NCBI RefSeq assembly: GCF_001447785.1 | Contig: NW_015168656.1 | Coordinates: 1-64,000 of the forward strand | Reading direction: 5' to 3' | Source of the DNA: Gekko japonicus | Taxonomy: Eukaryota | DNA length: 64,000 bases | Part shown: piece after piece, positions 1 to 61,418 of the stretch | Numbering within the stretch: position 1 is the first letter of the stretch | How the letters are laid out: each line of letters starts with the position of its first letter | Program-made: the position numbers and the translations under genes | The notes under the pieces: model-generated | What the model was told of the DNA's origin: nothing | What the model saw: the letters and a program-made list of their open reading frames with translations, nothing else | Databases searched by the model: none

Positions 1-264
1 AATTTCCTGGAGAAGTTGGCATAACATATAAGACAATTAAAACATCAACTTGACAAACCAGTCTGAAAGGATTAAATTTATTTGATTTTTATTTATTTGA
101 TTTATATCCTGCCTTCCCCCACAAGCGAGCTCAGGGTGGATCACAGCAAGTCATATATGAATACACAGAACAATTAAAACATTAAAACAACAACAGCTAA
201 TAGCTAAAAATAAAATTAGTCAGACCAAAGATGGCAGCTATTCTGGGAGTTCAGGTGCCTTCTA

Positions 265-335
265 AAGGAAGGAAGGAAGGAAGGAAGGAAGGAAGGAAGG
301 AAGGAAGGAAGGAAAGAAAGAAGGAAGGAAGAAGA
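265..335. repeat. (GGAA)n microsatellite, probably expanded from the adjacent SINE tail
   Basis: Direct run aaggaaggaagg... adjoining the (GAA)n tail of the SINE. Confidence 0.95.
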
Positions 336-610
336 AGAGGAGACTGAATTTATACCCTGCCCTTCACTACCCAAAGGAGTCTCAGAGAGGCTTACAATCC
401 CTTTCCCTTTCCCTCCCCACAACAGAAACCCTGTGTGGTAGGTGGGGCTGAGAGAGCTCTTTCAAGAACTGCCCTTGAGAGAACAGCTCTGAAAGAACTT
501 ATGACAGACCCAAGGTCACACCAGCAGCTGCATGTGGAGGAGTGGGGAATCAAACCCAGTTCTCGCAGATTAGAGTCCACACTCTTAACCACTACATCAA
601 ACTGGCTCTC
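331..610 (-). mobile_element. tRNA-derived SINE, Squam3-like (long form)
   Basis: Reverse complement starts GAGAGCCAGTTTGATGTAGTGGTTAAG (A box) and has GGGTTTGATTCCC (B box) and a (CTT)n tail. Near-identical copies at 45737, 59467 and 34905-35160. Confidence 0.85.
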
Positions 611-3029
611 TAATTAAGATTATCATAAAATAGTGACTTGTCGGCTGGTGGTGCTGCTTGTTCTCTTACGCAGGGTAAATGGCACTCTGGCACTGTAGCA
701 GCACAAACCATGTGAGCAGTGCGAGCAGGGGAGGCTGGGATGGATTAGACATCTACCAACTCAGCCAAAGGCCTGGCGGAATAGCTCTGTTTTACAGGCC
801 CTGTGGAATTGTAATAAGTCCCGCAGGGCCGTGATCTCCAGTGGAACTGTGTTCCACCAGGCCAGGGCCAGGGCAAAAAAAGCTGTGGCCCTTTTTGAGG
901 CTAAATGGACATCTTTTGGGCTGGGGACTACTAGAAGGTGTTGCTTGGCTGAGCGGAACACTCTTTGGGGCACATATGGGGAGAGTCGGTACTGTAGGTA
1001 TGTTGGTTCCAGGCCTCGTAGGGCTTTAAAGTTCATTACCATAACCTTGAACCAGATTTGGTACTCAATTGGCAGGCAGTGCAATTGGCTTAACACTGGA
1101 TGAATGCGTGCCCGCATAGATGTCGCAGTCAATAGACGTGCCACCACGTTTTGCACTAGCTGCAGTTTCCGGGTCAGGTTCAAGGGCAGCCTCACATAGA
1201 GCAAGTTACTGTAACCTGGGAGTAACCATTGCATGGATCACTGTAGCCAAGTCCCAGGAGGTGAGATAGGGAATCAGCTGCCTGACCAGCCTCAGATAAT
1301 AAGCTGAACAACTGGTCAGCTCCCCAGTTTGTAATGCTACCCCAAAGGCTGCCCAAAATAATGCAGGCTTGCATGCCCTATGGAATGCTGGGTCCCTTCA
1401 CAACTTCTCCATGCCACACCCATGGCAGCAGCTCTGTTGCACCCCTCACATGCCTGCACTGACAAGCTGCATAGCTTATCTGTTGCCAGTAGTGTTGTGT
1501 GTGTGGGAATGTGTTGGACCCAGAGGACCGCCCCCCCCCCCCGTGCTAGAGAAGCCACACACACTTTTGAACCACCCACCAGCCCATTCACTATACAATC
1601 TGCACCCAGCAGAACATGCGTGTGGGGTAAGGAGCAACATGTGAGGTCAGCCTTCAAAGTGCTATTGGGCCTGTTACATTATGCAGTTGTACAGAACAGA
1701 AGTCCAGTGGCACCACAGAAACCAACAACAGCAATCTCAGAATGAATACCCTTGAGTCAGAGCCCACCCTCTCAGACATGTGAAGGGAGAGTCACTCCAG
1801 GAAGACTGAGGAGGCAATTACAGATGGGGGCAGGAGGTGGAGGAGGGGCATGGGGAAAGTCTCATCTCAAAAACAAATGAACAGAATTGCAGATCACTCC
1901 AGACTTTATTGAACAACTCATTAAGAGGTTTGATGAATGGGGTTGCCAACTCTCTCCATCTTGAATGGCTCCTGTGTCTTTGTGAGCTGCTCCTGGGGCC
2001 ATGGGAAGATAGACTGAGCTGTCCTTCACACAGTATGCATGTGAGGGGGGCAGACCTGCCAGATGAAAGCCTGTCCAAAGCAGGATACTCCAGGAGCCAG
2101 ACTGGAACCAATGGCTTAACAGAGTGGCATGGACTGCACCAGTCATGCTCCCAGGTGTTGAATGATCACCTGTACATAAGCAAAACAGAAATATGTGCAA
2201 TGGTGGCAAACAGCCCTGACATGATGTCTGCCACAGCCAGCCTGTGGGGCCTCAGGAGGGTTTGAGTTCCCACCCCCGGGGGGGGGCCTCTATTTACCAT
2301 AGAGTGCCCTTGAGGCCACCCAAATGACATTTACTGATATCATGGGGAACTGCTCTGCTACCACAACTGCTTCATCTGCAGCTGCTGAGGTACAGGGCTC
2401 TAATCCCTCAGGGCAATGGGTCATATGGATGTTTGGCCAGCTAATCCACAGAGCACAGTAGGGCAGGTGCTGGTTGCCCCATACCACAATTGTGCCCTGT
2501 CTCCCACTTGGGGGAAGGGGGTACCGTAGCAAGGGTGTGTGCTATCAGCATGGTATGGGGCTACTAGTGTCCTGCTCCCCCGCCCTGCATCATAGGCAGC
2601 TCTCCTGGGTACACTTTCTTGGGAGTATGCCCTGTTGCATAAGATGAGGCATACTGCTGGGTGGGCCTGGCTTGGGTTGCTCCCATCTGCACACACTGCT
2701 AGCCTTGAGTCTAGGAGCCAGCATCGTCACGACAGTACCCAGTTTTGTGCCAGGAGAACAGGGGAGGTGGGTGTAGTCTTCTGGGATGGGGCAGCCTTGC
2801 TTACCTGTTGAGTCTTTGGAGATGTGGTACCTGTTAGAGTTCTGAAATGACACATTAGCCACACAGCATGAACTTTGCTGTCTCTCTTGAATGTTATTGC
2901 TAAATGCTTCCTCAGTGGTCCTAAATGCACTCTTGGTGCCTCTCCCACCACCCAAGTGTACTTTCAGCATGCACAGGAGAGATCTCTGAGACAGAATCCC
3001 ATGCCATATGCCTTATCTTCTGAACTATG

Positions 3030-3106
3030 ATGTAAGCCACCCTGAGCCTCCGGGGAGGGCGGGATAAAAATGTGAATAATAAATAAAATAAATAAATAAA
3101 TAAAAA
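3030..3106 (+). mobile_element. L2 3' terminus (stem-loop plus TAAA tail)
   Basis: tgtaagccaccctgagcctccggggagggcgggataaaaa...(taaa)n. Same motif as at 33270-33340 and 33945-34008. Confidence 0.7.
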
Positions 3107-3254
3107 TCCTGGCTGAGGGGGGAGGGGACAGTGATTGGATGCAAGGGAGGGGGTTTGGCCACCCCTGGAGAGAGAATGATAATTTGCAATCTGTCCGCCG
3201 TCAAGGATTATGTGTGGGCTGTGGCCTGTGGGGGGGAATTTTTCTCTCTATAAA

Positions 3255-3400
3255 ATGAGATTGTCTAAATCAAGGAAGCCATAGTCCCCAGTTTGCAAGA
3301 CTTGAGCAAGGCTGTTAATTATAGGCCATTTTGGAGAACATTAATTCATAGGGTTGCCATAAGATGGAAGCGACTTTATGGCACTTCACACCCACCCACC
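3255..3400 (+). mobile_element. RTE-clade LINE 3' end fragment
   Basis: cagtttgcaagacttgagcaaggctgttaa...attcatagggttgccataag...cgactt..ggcact plus a CA-rich tail. Mirror of the copy at 41794-41997. Confidence 0.65.
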
Positions 3401-3700
3401 TACCTATGGGCTATGCCATTGTTTTTACTGGCATAACTTTCTACCACTTCTGGGGGTGTTTACACCATTCGTTCTCTGTAGACTTGAAGTGTCACTATCA
3501 GACTATGTAATGCAAGCCTCTGCCATTAAAGGCAATGTACATCAAATCTCATATAATCAAGGTCATTTCGATTGGTTTATTAAATACATGTGATATATTT
3601 TTGTGTTACTGTGGCTCTCAATTTCAGCCAAGAGCACCCTGACTCTGTGAAGGGTTAGTTACTTGTAAATTTGACTTCCTGTTCCTAAAGATAATAGGTA

Positions 3701-4037
3701 TAGGGGTGTCAAACATAGGCCCTATGGGCTTGTCCAGGGCTCTTATCCGGCCCCCGAGCAACCCTTTAATGTCAGATGACAGAGGCTGTGCATTATGTCC
3801 CTGTATACTGTCCCACTGCTAATGCATAAAGGGCAGTGGAAGTGGGAGGACATGCATCAGGGGGATAACATAAGGAAATACTGTGTTAATGTTTTAAGCA
3901 TGTTTGTATTTTGAATAAAAAATAAATAATTGTTAATTGGGTTTGCCTGTGTCCTTTATAAAGTGTATATTTCTGGAACCTGGCATTACATTTTATGTCA
4001 GATCTAGCCCTCGTAACAAAGGAGTTCGACACCCATT
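3701..4037 (+). mobile_element. Non-autonomous hAT (Charlie/Buster-like) MITE
   Basis: Left TIR TAGGGGTGTCAAAC; degenerate right TIR GTTCGACACCC. Its 3' half is collinear with the hAT at 34675-34772 plus 36239-36300. No TSD was discernible. Confidence 0.7.
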
Positions 4038-5934: not shown

Positions 5935-6280
5935 GCCGCCGCTTCGTCTCTTCAGGGATCTCGCGAGACCACGTCAAGGAAGCCGGGTGTTTTCCCTTCC
6001 CCCTCCTCCTTTCCCTCAAGCGTGTGCTAACCAGCCAGAGAGCGAGATAGGCCAGGCGCGCGGGGATTCTCGGGCGGCGCTTTGGGGCGTTCTGTGGTGG
6101 GGAGGGGGAAGAGGAGGAGGAGGAGGAGGAGGGGCCGAGCGGGCGAGCGGTCCACCGCGGTGTTCTGTGGGATACAGGCGGTGCTTGCCTCTTCTCCTGG
6201 GTGCGGATCGCCGCCGCCGCCGCCGCCGCCGACGAAGCGCACAGGGCGAGTGAGGGAAGGGGACGAGAGCCGAGCGGGGC

Positions 6281-6517
6281 ATGAAGATGGCGGACGCCAA
6301 GCAGAAGCGGAACGAGCAGCTGAAGCGCTGGATCGGCTCCGAGACCGACCTGGAGCCGCCCGTGGTGAAGCGCAAGAAGACGAAGGTGAAGTTCGACGAC
6401 GGAGCCGTCTTCCTGGCCGCCTGCTCGAGCGGGGACACCGAGGAGGTGTTGCGCCTGCTGGAGCACGGCGCCGACATCAACTACGCCAATGTGGACGGAC
6501 TCACCGCGCTGCACCAG
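6281..6517 (+). CDS. PPP1R12A: Protein phosphatase 1 regulatory subunit 12A (MYPT1), coding exon 1 (aa 1-79)
   Basis: MKMADAKQKRNEQLKRWIGSETDLEPPVVKRKKTKVKFDDGAVFLAACSSGDTEEVLRLLEHGADINYANVDGLTALHQ is the MYPT1 N-terminus, with the MyPhoNE motif (RNEQLKRW), the RVxF motif KVKF and the first ankyrin repeats. 237 nt, phase-0 donor CAG|GTCCGT. Confidence 0.98.
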
Positions 6518-8003
6518 GTCCGTGTCTGCCCGCTCGGGGCCCCGAGGCCAGGCCTAGCTTGGCTTGAGCTGCGGCGGAGCCTTCGACGAGGTTGGGGCCT
6601 GGCGGACGGCAGGAATGTCTTTCCTCTCTGCCCAGCCAGAGCTCTCTGTCACCCGGGGATGGGGGTGCGGGATGGCCTGGCTCACTTCTTCCCTCTCCTC
6701 TTCTCTCTAGGGGAGCCGGGCTGGCTGCACCCACCTCTTTTTGGCCCAGGAGTGTTGTGTTTTGCGGAGGAGGGTTCCTGGTTGGGCGGTTTAGGAGAGG
6801 GCCTTACTGTACCGGGAGACGGGTGGCATTGTGGCTCTCCGCTTCCTTCCCTCCCTGCGCTTGGCAGACCGGGGCTTGTGGGGGAGTTTGTTTCCCTGAG
6901 AGACTTGGAAAAGGGGAGGGGGCATCGCTTGTCCCCCCCCCCCCCCCGTTGTGGTCCGAAGGGAAAGAATATTCCCCGTCGTGAGGGGGTGACTTAGATG
7001 TGGATATTCGCTCCCACAGTTGGAAGGTTTAGGGTTTGCCACTACTGAATGGCTACCGTTTCCTGTGTCCTTTCACCCTAAATCGGTTGAAGTGTAAATA
7101 GGACTTTCCTATTCCTAAGAAAATAGTTTCTTCTCTTGTCTCTCCCTCCCCAGGGTTTGGTCTTGTTTTCAAAAGCTGGGTGTTAGTTTCTGCTTTTCCT
7201 GCTGTTTAGTCTGTGCTGTGCAATATGAACTCCAGTCCTTCAGCACTGACATCCAGTATGTGTGTGCTTTTTCTTAAGAGTGGAAAGTTATAAAATCATT
7301 AGTGCAATAATGCTGGTTTATGTTTGCACATTAAAAATAAAACCTTTTTTTAAAAGGTTAAGATGGAAAGGAAACTGGTTGAAGCTTTCTCAAAATGGAT
7401 GCTTAGTGCACTAAAGTTTTATATGAGCCTGATTGGAATCTCAAAATATTATCCAAATAAGGAAAGACTGTGGCAATCTGGACATAATGCGGGTTTGCTT
7501 GAATACTTGTGTTCTATTAACAGGCCAAAAGCAATAATAACATTAGTTCACTGAATATCAGAAAACCAAGAATAATCACTTTGACAGTTTGATATTTGTT
7601 TTGAATGTTAGTTGTCCTGGTATTTCCATAAAGACATAGTAATAAGGATTTGTATAGGAATCATCTTTATACAGCATACTTATTCGTTGAAAGTATAGTG
7701 GTTCATTAATTGCATCAAACACATTTCAAGTTAGTATGTATTAAAATTATGGATTATGAAATAAGTATGAGAGAAACCTCCCTGTTTCTGTGTTGCTTCA
7801 AGATAACTTGTTAACTGAAGAGGACTTACGTGTTATGCATATCTTGTTTTTATTGCTGTGCAAGGTGCATAATCAGCCCTGTCGCCTAAATGAAATCAGT
7901 CCTCCCGTGAAAAGGGTTGTAATCTCTTCAGAAAATTCATATGAGTTTATAAATAGGTTACACTAAGAAGAAACTACTGAAGAATATATAGAACTTGCAT
8001 GTA

Positions 8004-28208: not shown

Positions 28209-30770
28209 ATGTGAGAACCATATTGATTGTATTAGAATTTTTTGAAGCACACCCTGAAAAACAAATGGCATTATTATTTCTGGATGCGGGGGAAAGCCTT
28301 TGACAATCTTAATTGTTCCTTTATGTTGAAACAACGGTTGGCCTGGAACTTTGGAGAATATTTTTATACCATGGTGAGAACAATATACACAACACAATCT
28401 GCAAGAATTATAGTAAATGGTGATCTTATGCAAAATATTAAAATTGGAAAAGGAACAAGACAAGGATGTCCATTATCTCCACTTTTATTTATTTTTGCAC
28501 TGGAAACATTAAACAATATGATCAGAGAAGTCAGTGAAATCAAGGGACTCAGACTCAAAGGAGAGGAGTATAAACTACAGGCATTTGCTGATGACCTGGT
28601 ATTCATATTATAAGAACCTCAAACTTCAATTGTTCAATTTTTACATGTAATAAAAAAATGTGGACAGCATGCTGGCCTGAAGATAAATTATTATTTTTTT
28701 AAAAAAATTAACATTAAATGTTAAAACTGTACAAATGAACAAAAACAAGCCATACAAGATTCCTCAAGATTGGAGGTACAGAAAAAAAATCAAGTATTTA
28801 GGAATAATAATAACCAAGAGATGTAGTTCATTGTTTAAAGACAATTATATGAAACTTTTGGCGGAAATAAAAAAGGATATAGAAAACTGGAAGCATTTTC
28901 AACTATCATTTAAGGGAAGGATAGCAACAGTTAAGATGAATATTTTACCCAGATTGATTTTCCTATTCAAACAATTCAGACAATTCCAATTATAAAGAGT
29001 AAACAATATTTCAAAGAGCTAGAAAAGCTGATAAGACAATTTATTTGGGAAGGTAAAAAGTCAAGAATTAAGTTAAAACTACTACAAGACCCCAAGGAAA
29101 GAGGAGGATTGGCAGTTATATTATAAAGCGGCAGTTCTCACATGAGTTAAAGAATGGGTTACATTGGAAGATATGAGGCTGTTAAAGCTAGAAGGACATG
29201 ATTTAAAACTGGGTTGCATGCCTTCATCTGGTACCAAAAAAGTGGTAACCATAAGTACTTTAAACAACATATATTGAGGGCAGCATTAATAAAGGAATGG
29301 GAGCAAGCCCAGAAACTGTATTACAATAAGATACCAAAATGGGTTTCTCCATTAGAAGCATTCATAAACCCAATGACATTTAGAAAAGAACAGATGTGGA
29401 GATATCAAGACCTGTTAGGTAACCAAAACAAATTAATTCAGCCAGAAAAGTTAAAGGAAAAAGTTATCAACTTGAATTGGTAGGAAAGAGCCCAATTAGC
29501 TTCTAGATATGTGAAAGACAAAACCATGGGATTTTATGATGTACCAGTAGAATTAGATAAAATTGTCTGGTGTGCTGAAGGGAAATATATAAAACTATTT
29601 TATATGTTATTATTAGATATGAAAATGCAAGACGAGGTGGTAAAAGAAGCAATGGTTAAATGGGCATAAAATATAGGTCGTAACATACAACTAGAACAAT
29701 GGGAAAAGGTATGGAAAGTTAATATAAGGCTCACTAAAGCTGTGTCATATAAAGAAAATATATACACAATGTTTTATAGATGGCACATGACACCTGAAAA
29801 TTTAGCGAAATGGTATCCAAATATGTCAGACGTATGTTGGAAATGTAAACTAAAAACTGGTTCTTTTTACCATATGTGGTGGACTTGTGATGTTGTGAAA
29901 AAATATTGGATATGGATACATTAGATAATACAAAACATTCTTGACACAAATGTACCATTCATACCAGAATTGTTTTTATTAAACATTGCACTGCAAAATT
30001 TTAATATACAAGATGTATATATGATTATACAAGTTGCAACTACAGTTAGAATTGTGTATGCAAAATATTGGAAAAAAGAAGAGAACCTACAAAAGAAGAG
30101 CTAATTTTTAGACTTTTAGATGCAGCAGCAATGGACAAACTAACTTTACAACTACATGAAAAACAAGAAGGAAACTGAAAGAAAATGGGCGAGATTTTAT
30201 AATTGGATGCAAAACTACCTTACAGAACTTAAAGTATGAATTACAACAAAAACTTTACAGATATGGCGTAAAAGTAGCTTCTACAATTACATTGTAAACT
30301 AGAGTAGATGTAAGAGTATAGTCTTCATTATGTCAGATTTTTCTGTTCTATTCTTTTTCTTCATTCTGTAGTAACTTTCTATGAAATTAATAAAAATGGT
30401 GTTTTTTTTAAAAAAAAGACCTACATCAGGTTGGCCGACTGGTCCATCTCCCCTCCCCTCAGTTGGGCCAGGTTGCACATGTGTGGCTGCTGCTCCCTCT
30501 CCTGCTCCTGTCAGAGGTGAGGGGTGCCTCCTCCTCAGTTTGCATGAGTAGTGGGCCTCCCTCTTCGCTTCCTTCACCACTGTCCCTGCCACCACCTTCT
30601 TCTCCTCTGCTTGTCTCACTCTTCACTGTGATGCTGGAGAAGCGGCCCTTTGGGATGAGGGAAGGAAGAAGATGGGAGGGAGAAAGTCATTATGTGTGAA
30701 GGTGGTGGTGGTGGTGAGCTGCTGATGGAAACAGGCGTTGTGGCAGTGTAGGAATGGGAATACCATAGTG

Positions 30771-33340: not shown

Positions 33341-34772
33341 TCCTGGGCTGACTCCTCTTATAGCTTCGTTTAAACCAAGCTGCAAGAGGTGTGAGCCAGC
33401 CAAGGTGGCATGGAGCTGACAGCTTTGTGCCGCTTTGGCTGGGGCTGGCTCGCCTGAATAAAAGTTGAAAAAAATTGGCTTTTTTCAGGCTAAGCCATAT
33501 TGGTAGCTGCATACAGATTTAATAAATACCCGAAAAATACTGAAGGTATTTTTTTTTAATATATTTATTCGGTTTGGTTTATACCAAATGCACACCCCTA
33601 GTGGGAACAGCACTTGAAAAGCTATGGGAGGGAAGGGGAAATATAGCCCTTGTGGTAAGGGAAGGTGCTGCTGAGTGTTTCGTTTGGGGGGAGGTAGCAT
33701 GCAAAAGCAAGGGTGTAGTTGGAGGCTAAGATAAAACAGGAGTCTTGAGGCACTTTAAAGACTTTTTAACAGGTGGCTGGTGAATCTGTGGAGAATTCCA
33801 GATTTTTGTGGTGCATTCTGAAATCGCTGATTTTATGATCAGCTTAAACTGAGCATAGTAACATGAACCTTGATTGCGGTTTCCACTACTGTTTTAAATT
33901 ACTGTTTTAATTATTTTAACTATTATTGAGCCTTTGTGACTTTGTAACCTGCACTGAGCCCATCCGCGGGGAGGGTGGGATAAAAATTGAAATAAATAAA
34001 TAAATAAATTGAGTGAGTGTTGAGGGTGGTGACTCCAGTTCCTTGGAGAATTTATATTATATGTTTATGTTTTGGGTTGGACCTCTCTAATTGGTGAAGA
34101 AACCCTTCTTCACACACACAAATGCTTCCAGGGTTGCAGGGGGAAATGTTGCTGATCTCATGTAGTGGGAAAGTGTATTTTCAGAGATGGAAGAGGACCC
34201 CTGGGATTACTTGTGCAGAGGTGGGGTGAACAGGAAAAGTTTTTCTATGGTGGAAGGCGTTCTCAAGGCAGATTACACATAGTGAGTCAGTACAGTAAAC
34301 AAAATAGGACATTCACACTGCTCCTCACCTACTGATGAAAGGATGCCACAAATTGCAAGGAAGTGGGGGAGCAGTGTGATGTTGTACTCAAGGATAAACT
34401 TTCTGAAGTTCACATTAGCAAATTTTTACCAGTTTTGGGGTTTGAGTTACCCTGAATTTAAGGCTTTTGCTTCTAAAATTCTTTCTGTGTTTGGGACAAT
34501 GTATGTCTGTGAACAGCTCCTTTTTGTAATAAATGTCAGTAAATGAAAAGTACGTTCTCAGCTTACAGATACATACCTAAACAGCATACTCAAGATTGCT
34601 GCAGCACAGATATTGTCTCTAGATTTTGATGAAATAATTCAGAACAAGAGGTGTCAGTTATCAAAGACTGTTAAAGGAAATACTGCAAGAGTGTTAACGG
34701 TTTAAGCATGTTTGTATTTTGTGTAAAAATAATATTGTTAATGGGGTTTGCCTGTGTCCTTTATAAAGTTTA

Positions 34773-36238
34773 CAAGAGGTGAACCCACGATACTCGCGGG
34801 GGAACTTCTGATTCTCTGACAATTCAGTATAACTCCAAGGCTGAGCAGGAAGTCACCTGGGTCGACTCACTTGAGGTCACAGTCTGCAAACTGAGGGCTA
34901 AGAGCTCATTTGATTCCCCACTCCTCCACTTGCACCTGCTGGATGACCTTGGGCAAGCCATAGTTCTGGCACAACTGTTCTCTCAAGGGCAGTTCTCGTG
35001 AGAAAAAGATGAAGAAGAAGAGATTGGATTTATACCCCGCCTTTCACTGCCCAAAGGAGTCTCAGAGCGTCTTACAAACTCCTTTCCCTTCCCCTCCCCA
35101 CAACAGACACCCGGTGAGGTAGGTGGAGCTGAGAGAGCTCTTGACAGAAACTGCTCTTTTTTGGAGGCCATGGTGAGATCAGTGTAAAATAGAAGAAGGT
35201 GAGACCCCCCCCCCACGAGTTTTGCGGGTCTTCTTCCTTGTCACATTCTAAAGTGGGTATATGACACGGTAGCTTAGCGCCCTGTGTTATTTCATACAAT
35301 AACAGTGAGCTCTAAAGCAGTTACAGCCTTGTAAGCCCATTGACTGTTTAGGACTGCAGTGTAAATAAGTGATGTAGGGGGGCCGGCAAGTGTAACAGAG
35401 GCTGGGGACAGGAAGAGCCTACATCAGTTTCCCCACCCCAATACTTCCACCACTCCCCCGCCCCCCCTTAACAAACCGGGATGACCTGTCCGGCCTGCCT
35501 CCTCACCGTCCTCGTCACTTTTGTTCAGCGGGCGCCTTTACAGCTCCCCCAACACTCCTCCCCTGTCTTTCCATTCCACCCACGGGCCAAACTGAAGGGG
35601 TGGGGCTAAGCAGACACCTAGCCAATCCGCTAAGACAATCCATGGCAAAACACCGGGCGCCCCCGTGGATGAGTCCTCCAGGTTTGCCGCCCCTTGCTTG
35701 TTTTGCAGTAATCATCTTTCTGCGGAGCGGCGTTGAAGCAGTCTGTCTTCCAGCTAGGCCGCTCTCGGGATCCGGGGGCGGCGGCGACTCTGCTGCCTGC
35801 GAGGCGCAGGGACCTGCCGCCTGCTTGGAGGGGAAGGCGGAGCGGCGCCGGTGGCAGCCCCAGTCCAACCAGCGCTGCCCCTTCTGTTACTGCTTCCCTG
35901 CCTCCCGGGCCTCGCTCTTTCCCCCCCCCCCCAGCTCCGAAGCGAGGGCCGAGCGGCTGTTAGCCGCCCGGGCCTCGCTCTCCCCCCTGGCTCCCAAGCG
36001 CCCCCCCGCTCCCAAGCGGCGGCGGCCGCAGAGCGTTCCCTGCGTATGCGCAGGGGACGCTCTGTGACTTTCGGGGGGATTTAAACATCCGCCGATTTTT
36101 TTTCAAGATTTAGGATTTTTGTGCACACGTGGGGACCTCCCCACGTGCGCACAAACATCTCCCTCCCCCCCAGGTCCCCCCGATGCACGGATTTAAGTAT
36201 CCGCACGCACGGGGGGACTTCGGTATTAGATATATAGA
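34773..36238 (-). mobile_element. Non-autonomous Helitron (copy 1)
   Basis: On the - strand it starts TCTATATATCTAATAC and ends with hairpin CCCGCGA-GTA-TCGTGGG, 7 nt and CTTG. It sits between A and T with no TSD. Removing it restores the hAT sequence ttataaagttta|tatttctgg seen uninterrupted at ~3956-3976. Confidence 0.88.
34905..35160. mobile_element. Two Squam3-like SINE halves in opposite orientation inside the Helitron
   Basis: 34905-35003 is a 5' half on + (tgattccccactcctccac...). 35004-35160 is a 3' half with its tail on -. Confidence 0.85.
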
Positions 36239-37447
36239 TATTTCTGGTACCTGGCATTACGTGTTATGACACATATGACCTGGCCCTCATAACAGATGAG
36301 CACTTTTGCTCAATCTTGACCAATTGCCCTCCATATTACAGGCTCTATTCCACATGGCTTTTGCCAGTGGAGGTCCCAAAATCCCAAACATAGTCTTTAC
36401 AGCATTTAAAAGGGACCTCTGCCTCTTTTTTAAACCAGTGGGAAAAGTGGCTATATCCAACTTTTGTGTTTCCACTGAGAATTGCTGAGAGACACTACAA
36501 TAAAATCACTTGGTGTACTAGGCACCCCAATAAAATTTCTCAGCTCCTTGGTGATCTAGTGCCTGGAATTAGTGAAGCCCTGATTTAGATTGTGGCACAG
36601 CTTAAAGTATCATGTTTTCTTATGAGATCAAACTTGGACCCTTGTACATTATCACAGTCCTGTCTAGAAATGTGTCGGCCTTGTAAAGAAATGTTCTTTG
36701 CCAAGGATTCCCTCTTAGAACTTTTCCAGCAGAAAAATTGGAATTTTGGGGGAACTCTGAAAACAAACTCTAATGAAATATTTTCTTCTTTACGGTATGT
36801 GAGATACTTTATAAGCCTAGATGTACCCTTTGAAAATGTGAACTGGTCATACTTCCGGTGCGGCGTAGCGACGGGCGGAGTGCGGTTAGCTCCGTCCCAC
36901 CCGAACCTCTTGCGGTCTCTTCCGAGTCTCCCGAGCGTCGGGAGAACTTGGCCAGCCCTCCCGGAGAGAGGGCTGGAGCATGGGGCGTCTTTTTTGGCCC
37001 CTCCCGTCTGTCGGCACGCGGGGGGGTGTCCAGAAACTGCTCCGAAGCGGGGCCGCTTGAATGGGGAAAACATGGCGACCGCCATGTTTGAAGTAGCTGC
37101 AGCCATCCGGACTTGTTTTTAAAATATCTGAGATGTTTATTCAACAAAGCAACACAGAACTAGAAGAAAAGCGTGAGTAAAACTGATGTTTGAAAGGGAA
37201 ACCCCCAAAAAGAAAGTGTCCTAAACGGAAAGTGATAGCGGCCGGGAGATTTAAAGGGACCTGAGTGTTTGCTGCTACCTAGTTGGGGGAAGAAGATTTA
37301 TTTCATCCTTGGTGGTCCGTCGGATTTGGCTTTGGCGGTGAGGACTTATAGGAAGGTTAATGTTTGGTGAACAGCTGTATAACAAGGGGGGAAAAAACAA
37401 AACCCCACTTTCATGAACTTGAGAGAACTGTTTTTAAGAGTTCAGAA

Positions 37448-46435: not shown

Positions 46436-47561
46436 AGAACATAAGAGAAGCCAATGTTGGATGAGGCCAATGGCCCATCCAGTTCTACACTCTGTCACAA
46501 AGTGGCCAAAAATACCAGGTGCCATCAGGAGGTCCAGCAGTTGGGCCAGGACACTAGAAGCCTTCCCACTGTTGCCCCCCCCCCCCCAAGCACCAAGAAT
46601 ATAGTGCATCACTTGCCCCAAACCTTGTGGCTGATAACCATTGATGGACCTCTGCTCCATATGTTTGATCTAATTCTCTCTTGAAGCTGTCCATGCTTGT
46701 AGCCGCCGCCACCTCCTGCGGCAGTGAATTCCATGTGTTAATCACTCTTTGAGTGAAGTACTTCCTTTTATCTGTTCTAACCTCTGCTCAGCAATTTCAT
46801 GGAGTGCCCACGAGTTCTTGTATTGAGAGAAAGGGAGAAAAGTACTTCTTTCTTTACCTGCACTATCCCATGCATAATCTTATAAACCTCGATCATGTCA
46901 CTGCTCAGTTGTTGTTTCTCTATGCTAAAGAGCCCCAAGTGTTTTAACCTTTCTTCATAGGGAAAGTGTTCCAACCCTTTTATCATTCTAGTTGCCCTTT
47001 TCTGCACTTTTCCCAATGCTATAATATCCTTTTTGAGGTGTGGTGATCGGAACTATACACAGTACTCCAAATGAGGTCGCACCATTGATTTATACAGGGG
47101 CATTATGATACTGGCTGATTTGTTTTCACTTCCCTTCCTAATAATCCCGAGCATAGCTTTGCCCTTTTTTATAGCAGTTGTACACTGTCTCGACATTTTC
47201 ATTGAGGTCTTTACTACGACTCCAAGATCTCTCTCTTGGTCAGTCTTTGCCAGTTCGGACTCCATCAACGTGTATTTATAGTTTGGATTTTTGGCTCCAA
47301 TGTGCATCACTTGGCCACTTTGAACCCCATTTGCTACGCTGACACCCACTCGCCCATCCTCGACAGATCCCTTTGGAGTGCCTCACAATCCTCCCAGGTT
47401 CTCACCACCCTGAACAACTTCATGTCATTTGCAGATTTAGCCACATCACTGCTTATTCCCAACTCCAAATCATTAATAAACACGTTAAAAAGCATTGGAC
47501 CAAGTACTGATCCATATGGTACCCCACTGCTTACCACCCTCCACTGAGAAAATTTCCCATT
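46436..47561 (-). mobile_element. CR1 LINE (RT fragment to 3' end)
   Basis: [59 protein letters not shown], and a ttcttatgttct-type terminus. Confidence 0.93.
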
Positions 47562-48479
47562 GTTTTTTCCTCATCAAGGAATGGTATGGGTCAGTCCTCT
47601 GATACTCAGTGTACTTCTTGATGACTGCCTCCAATGCAGTTGGCCTCAGTGACCTTACATTTCATATCTGTAATGGGGTCTACCTAAAAAAGCTCACACA
47701 AACACTTGTTGTTTTTGAAGTTATTTTAGCTGTGAATTTAGCTGGTGGGATTTCAGAATTGGGAATCTTGATATCACTGGCCCTTATATGTCCCTTCTGA
47801 TAAGATGCCCTTGAAACGGACCCTACATTACTACAAGGGTAATTTCGGTTTTTTGTCTAAGAGTTTTTGCTTCTTCCATTTAATCTCCACCAACTGAAGA
47901 AACGGTGCATATTGATTTCAGTTGCAAAACTATGTTTTCTCCTTGAGAGAAGCTTTCATTAGGTAATTCAGTTTCTTCCCGTTTCCTCTCACCTACCCTG
48001 ATGGTTAGAAGGTCTCCAATCCAGCACTGAACAAACAACTCAGGCAACATGCCATTCTTGTCCATCCAAGTCTGTCCCAGCATCTCAAGGATCACAGTGG
48101 TAGCCATTGCAGTTCCTTGTTCCTGATACCTTGGTTGAAGTCACTGATAGAATCTCTACCTGAGTGTTTTTCACATATTGATGCTTAGATAAACTGCATC
48201 AGCTAATTGTAGCCTTGACAGGCAGCTCTTACATTAGTCTTGAAACAAAATAGCCATTTGTACTCAATATGGCAATAACTTCTTTTGGACATCTCATGCT
48301 CAGATGCCCTCCCCCTCAGAGTGAGAAAGGAACATTGCCACTTAACTGTGAGGGTTCTTTCTACTCTGAGGAAGGGAGGGCATCTTATTCCACCCTAAGT
48401 AAGGGAGTAAACAATTTGGGCTGACTACCTGCCCCCCCCTCTATATCTATCTATCTGTCTGTCTATATTGTGTATCACT

Positions 48480-60698: not shown

Positions 60699-61418
60699 CA
60701 AGGGGGGACCCGCGATACTCGCGGGGGGGGGGGCAGAGGAGGAAGCAGCAGGAGGAGGGAAGAACCCCCCCATCCCGGCNNNNNNNNNNNNNNNNNNNNN
60801 NNNNNNNNNNNNNNNNNNNNNNNNNNNNNNNNNNNNNNNNNNNNNNNNNNNNNNNNNNNNNNNNNNNNNNNNNNNNNNNNNNNNNNNNNNNNNNNNNNNN
60901 NNNNNNNNNNNNNNNNNNNNNNNNNNNNNNNNNNNNNNNNNNNNNNNNNNNNNNNNNNNNNNNNNNNNNNNNNNNNNNNNNNNNNNNNNNNNNNNNNNNN
61001 NNNNNNNNNNNNNNNNNNNNNNNNNNNNNNNNNNNNNNNNNNNNNNNNNNNNNNNNNNNNNNNNNNNNNNNNNNNNNNNNNNNNNNNNNNNNNNNNNNNN
61101 NNNNNNNNNNNNNNNNNNNNNNNNNNNNNNNNNNNNNNNNNNNNNNNNNNNNNNNNNNNNNNNNNNNNNNNNNNNNNNNNNNNNNNNNNNNNNNNNNNNN
61201 NNNNNNNNNNNNNNNNNNCGAGGCACGCACAGGAGACGCTCTTGCACTTTCGGGGGGATTTAAACATCCCCCCGAATTTTTTTTTGACTTTTTTTATTTT
61301 TGTGCACATGTGGGGACTGCCCCACATGTGCACAAACCTCCCCCTGCCCCCCAAGTGCCCCCAAAGTGCAGATATAGATATCAGCACGGAGGGGGCAACT
61401 TGTGTATTAGTATAAGGA
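60699..61418 (-). mobile_element. Non-autonomous Helitron (copy 2), interior mostly in a gap
   Basis: On the - strand it starts TCCTTATACTAATAC and ends with the perfect hairpin CCCGCGA-GTA-TCGCGGG and CTTG, at an A|T site. 61225-61418 is homologous to 36045-36238. Confidence 0.82.
60780..61218. other. Assembly gap inside Helitron copy 2
   Basis: N run with GC-rich edges. Confidence 1.

Follow-up and report, generated by a model that had tools for sequence, protein, structure and literature searches.

The window analyzed here is a 64,000-nucleotide stretch of Gekko japonicus DNA, and on its minus strand, at 34773..36238, lies a complete non-autonomous Helitron copy of 1,466 bp that begins A|TC, ends CTTG|T and is not flanked by a target duplication. 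The copy interrupts a hAT element on the plus strand. The left flank (34289..34772) comprises the decayed remains of the coding region for the transposase C-terminus, together with the 3' UTR, and was recognized by feature search, with a match of 0.94 to clusters in which 15-27% of members carry PF05699 (Dimer_Tnp_hAT); Pfam gave no match to the decayed hAT fragments at E 0.1. The right flank (36239..36300), placed by paralogue alignments, continues the same element, which has 3,991 candidate matches across the genome. A second copy of the Helitron family, whose CTTG had also been pointed out in the original prediction, occupies 60699..61418 on the minus strand and runs from A|TC to hairpin-CTTG|T around an assembly gap (Ns at 60780-61218). 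Elsewhere, the window contains a GC-rich 247-codon frame with ankyrin repeats (PF13637) at 6254-6994 on the plus strand, probably the first exon of a host gene, and LINE-type reverse-transcriptase fragments at 28236-28610, 29670-29921 and 47337-47570.

The boundaries of the insert are exact, 34772 being the final base of the left flank and 36239 the opening base of the right flank. When joined, the two flanks align in a single stretch (134/164, E 4e-40) with a paralogue at 3872..4024 on the plus strand, within a short hAT-like element, in which the junction reads A3967|T3968 without interruption. This empty site bears out the original prediction, which had described a 1466-bp insert with exact ends and an uninterrupted MITE paralogue at ~3956-3990. 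The same junction is uninterrupted in 23 of 24 other hAT copies drawn from the genome, confirming the prediction that the element sits between A and T and created no target duplication. The TA dinucleotides visible on both sides of the insert are already present in the empty site and therefore do not represent a duplicated target. Joints that skip the insert occur in all four runs; their sides are just 18-30 letters long and could derive from hAT paralogues, so these joints do not count as evidence of presence/absence polymorphism.

Family-wide termini and RepHel-coding relatives

Read on the minus strand, the element starts with TC and ends in a 7-bp-stem hairpin (34784-34800), a 7-nt spacer and CTTG (together 34773..34802), as originally described. 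The 17-nt hairpin lies 11 nt before the element end, within the range typical of canonical Helitrons of the HLE1 class (16-20 nt, ~10-12 nt from the end). Its fold (-5.4 kcal/mol) was equaled in stability by 5 of 200 shuffles, and three sequence variants of the hairpin share the design of the fold and the same 3' arm. The 5' core (36009..36238, minus strand) has an AT-rich first 14 nt followed by GC-rich palindromes at about 36114-36159 and 36029-36064, and is common to all 30 best genomic matches at 89-100% identity. Across 36029-36178 the palindromes are very stable (z -9.1, 0/200 shuffles); the RepHel-coding copy described below has far weaker ones. No terminal inverted repeat joins the two ends, self-comparison returning local palindromes only.

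Used as a genome query, the 5' 200 bp returned 2,711 candidates, and the 30 best, the window copy included, all read A|TC. The exact 17-mer of the terminal hairpin occurs 1,866 times genome-wide and is followed by CTTG|T in 1,727 cases, by CTRR|T in 3 and by other ends in 136. Reversed-pattern controls gave 0 matches against these 1,866 hairpins and 1,727 hairpin-CTTG|T ends, and the terminal patterns are therefore not due to chance. Degenerate patterns identified 2,914 5' ends (control 1) and 3,782 hairpin-CTTG ends. When flanks were gathered without requiring a target base, A occupied -1 at 82 of 85 starts and T occupied +1 at 79 of 80 CTTG ends. Other copies thus show the A|T flanks and the CTTG that had been expected of them, and CTTG, as had been argued, is not a one-off mutation but the end of the family as a whole. 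Both ends were located at 50 of 82 loci, where elements are 380-1,548 bp long and terminate in CTTG (44), CTTA (2) or TTTG, CATG, ATTG and CTAG (1 each), the single CTAG coming from loci chosen for CTRR.

A target bias beyond A|T was seen in the 3' flanks of family copies (L002-L213), where (C/T)TA(A/T) occurs at +6 to +12 in 45 of 80, against 6 and 5 of 80 farther out, and A at +10 in 58 of 80, a pattern similar to the element's own AT-rich 5' end. Helraiser reportedly prefers AT-rich 3' flanks.

The PF14214 profile has 34 matches in the genome, and 20 kb around 10 of them were examined. One of these loci, G000:C8342:354370-361904, is a 7,535-bp element with the family A|TC start, broken RepHel frames and a hairpin-CTTG|T end. 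Another, on C15808, is 91.5% identical to it over 4.2 kb and has the same hairpin-CTTG|T end and broken coding, with no 5' end found in the 20 kb around its Rep. RepHel frames with these termini, which the original prediction proposed to look for, are thus represented by two broken copies with the CTTG end, one of them with both ends, and no intact CTTG-lineage RepHel ORF was found among the 10 loci. The remaining eight end in CTAG|T (seven) or CTAG|C (one), ends judged by eye where the mutual similarity of the loci stops, and CTAG lineages have longer open frames of up to 959-981 residues. At L087 (G000:C11350), a second copy of a CTAG-lineage Helitron's last 1 kb, with the same downstream flank, lies ~6 kb upstream of the Rep domain and upstream of the element itself.

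The CTTG-lineage Rep carries VIEFQKRGLPHVH, which we take to be an HLE1 motif, scores 202 bits against PF14214 and, as a fragment, matches Helraiser 7LCC at E 1.6e-112. It is 32-48% identical to the Rep of the CTAG lineages and at most 51% identical to any of the best 120 of 1,536 matching proteins. There are 153 occurrences of the hairpin variant found in C8342; among 20 such loci examined, 19 read CTTG|T and 13 also have the family 5' end. Because this hairpin differs in sequence from the family's commonest one, and because the 5' 200 bp of the C8342 element are only about 71% like the nearest non-autonomous copy, the C8342 RepHel copy is best regarded as a relative of the mobilizer only; the window copy would have been mobilized by that lineage.

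Captured host DNA in the interior

Between its termini, the window copy is a mosaic of captured host gene DNA, which the original prediction had missed. Donor loci were established for three interior segments. Donor genes were named by protein searches, and the donor-gene proteins match gecko proteins best, which supports the attribution to a squamate family made at the outset. Adjoining the 5' core on the minus strand is a GC-rich segment (35899..36008) that is common to many family copies, and then a fragment of the HPRT1 5' CpG island, on the 5' UTR side (35772..35898, minus strand). This fragment matches G000:C10146 at 94.9% over 195 bp (C10146:191765-191959), the match extending to 35704, and an HPRT exon lies ~5.4 kb downstream of it in the same orientation. 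Since two Helitron copies are 98.5% like C10146 across the 195 bp of the match, and RNA reads and contigs from organisms B and C diverge from the window sequence near 35772, the C10146 locus may be partly a chimeric assembly, in the part matching the 35704 side beyond 35772. In another family copy (G000:C14603, minus strand), a 21-codon exon at L173:2783-2845 opens with ATG, has a GT donor and agrees with HPRT1 exon 1; the 1.3 kb after it resemble HPRT1 intron 1. The assembled HPRT1 locus on C10146, possibly misassembled, lacks this exon.

The next segment, GC-rich and captured-looking (35637..35762, minus strand), is common to three other Helitron copies, and a genome search established no donor for it. 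It is followed, in sense with the element, by CASP8AP2 promoter-proximal DNA, non-coding exon 1 and the start of intron 1 (35368..35636, minus strand), 97.8% identical over 269 bp to a single locus (C9474:58073-58341) and with GT splice donors at 35506 and 35476. Reads of RNA run X19 lie on 35477-35630 with the donor alleles, 8 and 3 of them exiting at the two GT sites, and the spliced reads join exon 2, located 1 kb downstream at the CASP8AP2 donor; by protein search, that exon codes for the N-terminus of a protein labelled Gekko japonicus, CASP8-associated protein 2. As donor-allele reads splice at both GTs, the window copy holds the CASP8AP2 non-coding first exon together with both splice donors.

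The third donor accounts for a 126-bp host fragment (35241..35366, minus strand), which is 97.6% identical to C15202:6035-6160 and to a near-identical duplicate on C6731, and whose end coincides with an empty A|T site at the donor. The two contigs (L129/L130) are 99.9% identical over 3.1 kb, through either recent duplication or an uncollapsed haplotype. Finally, 34800..35240 on the plus strand is the inverted 3' part of another family copy, with its own hairpin and CTTG|T at 35212-35240; the internal CTTG terminus of the original prediction therefore exists, but on the plus strand, as an inverted piece of that other copy. This part resembles the 3' ends of the C6130, C8335 and C14603 copies (93-94% identity) and an internal stretch of the C12301 copy (96.8% over 400 bp). 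It includes repeat pieces at 34909-35159 that are presumably SINE-like, and its hairpin has decayed in the window copy (z +1.1). The C12301 copy (L032) has two forward termini, and its inner CTTG, followed by C and not T, is located where the window copy has the inverted hairpin, which suggests a switch at the hairpin.

Interiors vary across the family, as 34 gap-free ones fall into 29 clusters, and pooled unshared interior segments have a GC content of 0.63 and a CpG o/e of 0.62, compared with 0.46 and 0.31 in the flanks. A sister subfamily (10 matches) contains ~700 bp of SYDE2 exon 1 at 89% identity. No Helitron ends were found near the donors, in 20 kb around CASP8AP2 and HPRT1 and 3.7 kb around SYDE2, and Pfam on 41 frames around donors gave just a weak PRT domain and an RT. 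Two GC-rich exemplars have multiplied, L059 occurring at no fewer than 40 places and L066 at about 28. Donor searches for their interiors returned only Helitron copies among the 19 and 9 loci examined, and the case for a capture bias toward CpG islands is therefore based on composition and the three named donors (CASP8AP2, HPRT1 and SYDE2).

The element has a CpG o/e of 0.62, compared with 0.30 for the window, and this had been read as CpG retention reflecting recent activity. That reading does not hold: the CpGs are largely inherited from captured CpG islands and the palindromic core, and the copies decay relative to their donors. Donor CpGs have become TG or CA in the copy at 5/20 positions for HPRT1, 1/13 for CASP8AP2 and 17/75 for SYDE2 (L025), while changes in the reverse direction, with TG or CA at the donor, number 1/17, 0/10 and 3/53; CpG richness is thus no sign of present activity. 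The 5' end nearest to that of the window copy is 93% identical, the donors differ by about 2%, and the family includes younger copies, 99% identical at the 5' end or 98.9% across 697 bp. Judged by these identities, the family is evolutionarily young only. A run index listed no RNA run with the sequence, and for run X19, of which about 12% was scanned and 40 reads were placed, no RNA joints specific to the window copy are listed. The promoter DNA that was captured is likely to be a passenger decaying by methylation and not a working promoter.

Summed contig depth on the 5' end at 88% likeness is 310,000-509,000 in the two runs of organism A versus 70-3,167 in organisms B and C, with a hAT bin depth of 157,000-608,000 across all four runs; depth here is not a copy number. 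Organism D has short pieces matching the family, at a depth of up to 27,719, so relatives of the family exist outside organism A. In organism C, a 326-bp contig aligns to 36236-36499 while its first 61 letters find no match in the Helitron, which would fit an empty orthologous site. A contig of X1, a run possibly non-independent of the assembly, crosses the 5' junction by only 25 letters.

Mobilization and the origin of the interior

We consider it very probable that the window copy belongs to a high-copy gecko Helitron family (A|TC; hairpin-CTTG|T) mobilized, likely by rolling circle, by a RepHel lineage with the same ends. Rolling-circle copy-and-paste has been demonstrated for Helraiser (PMC4778049), and the anatomy of the gecko family suggests the same mode. 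By analogy with the Helraiser work, RepHel would nick at TC, the helicase would peel off a single strand until paused by the hairpin, and a cut behind CTTG would release the strand, the product then being joined into a site reading A|T. The interior would have been assembled stepwise, from the HPRT1 5' end to CASP8AP2 exon 1 and then to the 126-bp fragment with its inverted neighbor copy.

Regarding capture itself, we lean toward template switching or filler repair within the element, combined with recombination among copies, since the last 30 bp stay constant in exemplars with different interiors; short C- or G-runs are common to both sides at two joins to the terminus. It is quite possible, if somewhat doubtful, that an element of the same class instead gained its interior mainly by end bypass or compound transposition, reading through into host DNA and stopping at the end of a nearby copy. 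Next to the inverted hairpin-CTTG|T come 126 bp, and at exactly that point their donor has an A|T that is empty, as expected if a neighbor on the opposite strand was read through; such read-through explains an inverted terminus that brings along its 126-bp flank better than filler repair does. Copies with two tandem termini (C12301 and L113), a CTAG in the CASP8AP2 donor where the captured piece ends and the compound capture described for HelibatN539 (PMC4224331) also speak for bypass. The donors, however, lack Helitron ends over the distances given above, although unfixed copies may have vanished, and at the upstream CASP8AP2 join the donor reads C|G rather than A|T. As insertions of Helraiser are 6.9-fold more frequent in CpG islands (PMC4778049), a CpG-island donor bias is explicable under either capture model.

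Two further readings concern the mobilizer and the class. Mobilization in trans by a CTAG-ending RepHel lineage of the same genome, tolerant of CTTG, would draw on the longer open frames of those lineages and on the ability of Helraiser to end at CTTG after deletion of its hairpin or right end (PMC4778049). We think it unlikely, given that the element ends have no similarity to seven of the eight CTAG loci and one internal 48-bp match to the eighth, that the C8342 RepHel copy has both family ends and that the CTTG and CTAG lineages are so little alike in Rep. A cut-and-paste MITE (Tc1/mariner with a TA duplication, or hAT) or a Helentron/Helitron2 is extremely improbable, despite the TA on both sides of the insert and 5'-end palindromes similar to Helitron2 left-end hairpins. 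Both TAs are in the empty site and no inverted repeat joins the two ends, so that the element lacks both the TA or 8-bp target duplication and the terminal inverted repeats of Tc1/mariner or hAT MITEs. The short (asymmetric) terminal inverted repeats and T|T insertion of Helitron2/HLE2/Helentrons are absent as well: the target is A|T, 0 of 85 5' flanks end in T, and no endonuclease family appears in the Pfam matches of the Rep fragment or among the close homologues listed. The empty sites and flank counts refute this reading.

Relation to known Helitrons

The features tested for HLE1 (5' TC, terminal hairpin, A|T insertion without target duplication, no terminal inverted repeats and a RepHel-coding partner with matching ends, namely the broken C8342 copy at both ends and the broken C15808 copy at the 3' end) were all found except CTRR, and the element is therefore filed, on its sequence, as a CTTG variant of canonical Helitrons. 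The original claim of a squamate CTTG Helitron stands insofar as the element is a non-autonomous Helitron and CTTG is family-wide; CTTG ends as such had already been published, for HELPO2 (PMC4289320) and for maize and truncated Helraiser products (PMC4778049). We found no published report of a gecko or squamate CTTG Helitron in a literature search that reached few subscription journals and neither Dfam nor Repbase; the supplements of PMC11417382 and PMC2997563 may name relevant families. CTTG in the text of PMC4021074 and PMC2267711 belongs to primers, not Helitron ends.

HelSearch, HELIANO and other tools are described as seeking a hairpin and CTRR (PMC4289320, PMC11417382). As CTRR-based tools would miss CTTG ends, at least 2,900-3,800 gecko copies may be under-annotated. 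A broader and distinctly tentative proposal, which we hold to be improbable as it stands, is that a gecko RepHel lineage evolved CTTG termination and independently replayed what happened in bats, with thousands of copies preferentially capturing promoters in CpG islands along with first exons, those of CASP8AP2, HPRT1 and SYDE2 among others, and with new transcripts now starting from some of these. If this were true, CTTG copies would be invisible to CTRR-based finders. Promoter and first-exon capture at scale is known from bats; a squamate parallel would make it a general property of amniote Helitrons and, if shown, a source of regulatory novelty in geckos. The CTTG and CTAG RepHel lineages of one genome form a natural pair for asking what determines the termination site.

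Like canonical Helitron1/HLE1 elements (Helibat1/Helraiser), the gecko family has a 5' TC, a hairpin ~11 nt from the end, an A|T target without duplication and a RepHel with an identical Rep motif (PMC4778049, PMC11417382); it differs in the predominance of CTTG over CTRR noted above, in the long palindromes of its first 215 bp and in the low identity of its partner Rep to the best-matching proteins. HELPO2 of Pleurotus ostreatus shares family-wide CTTG, the A|T target, a hairpin and RepHel, but is described as fungal, mostly autonomous, present in 8 copies in one strain and without captured genes (PMC4289320), whereas the gecko family has thousands of non-autonomous copies with captured host DNA; the two RepHels are likened by description only. 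Closest in content are HelibatN3 and other bat Helitrons, in which promoter, 5' UTR and exon 1, along with a portion of intron 1, were captured and amplified, capture was sequential and most donors are without a Helitron (PMC4224331). Bat Helitrons nonetheless end in CTRR, and transcription from captured promoters is documented in them (PMC4224331), while the gecko case is one of sequence only. Anolis Helitron-1_AC/-2_AC and HeligloriaB are likewise squamate Helitrons, with non-autonomous families in abundance (PMC3014272, PMC2997563). Compared by description only, they differ in being internal deletions of autonomous copies with rare capture, and the passages on them in these sources mention no CTTG end. 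Lepidopteran Hel1/Lep1 elements also combine fixed ends with stepwise internal gains, read as filler DNA, and a non-CTRR end (CTRY); they differ from the gecko family in having another terminal motif, a much shorter length and insect hosts (PMC6544945).
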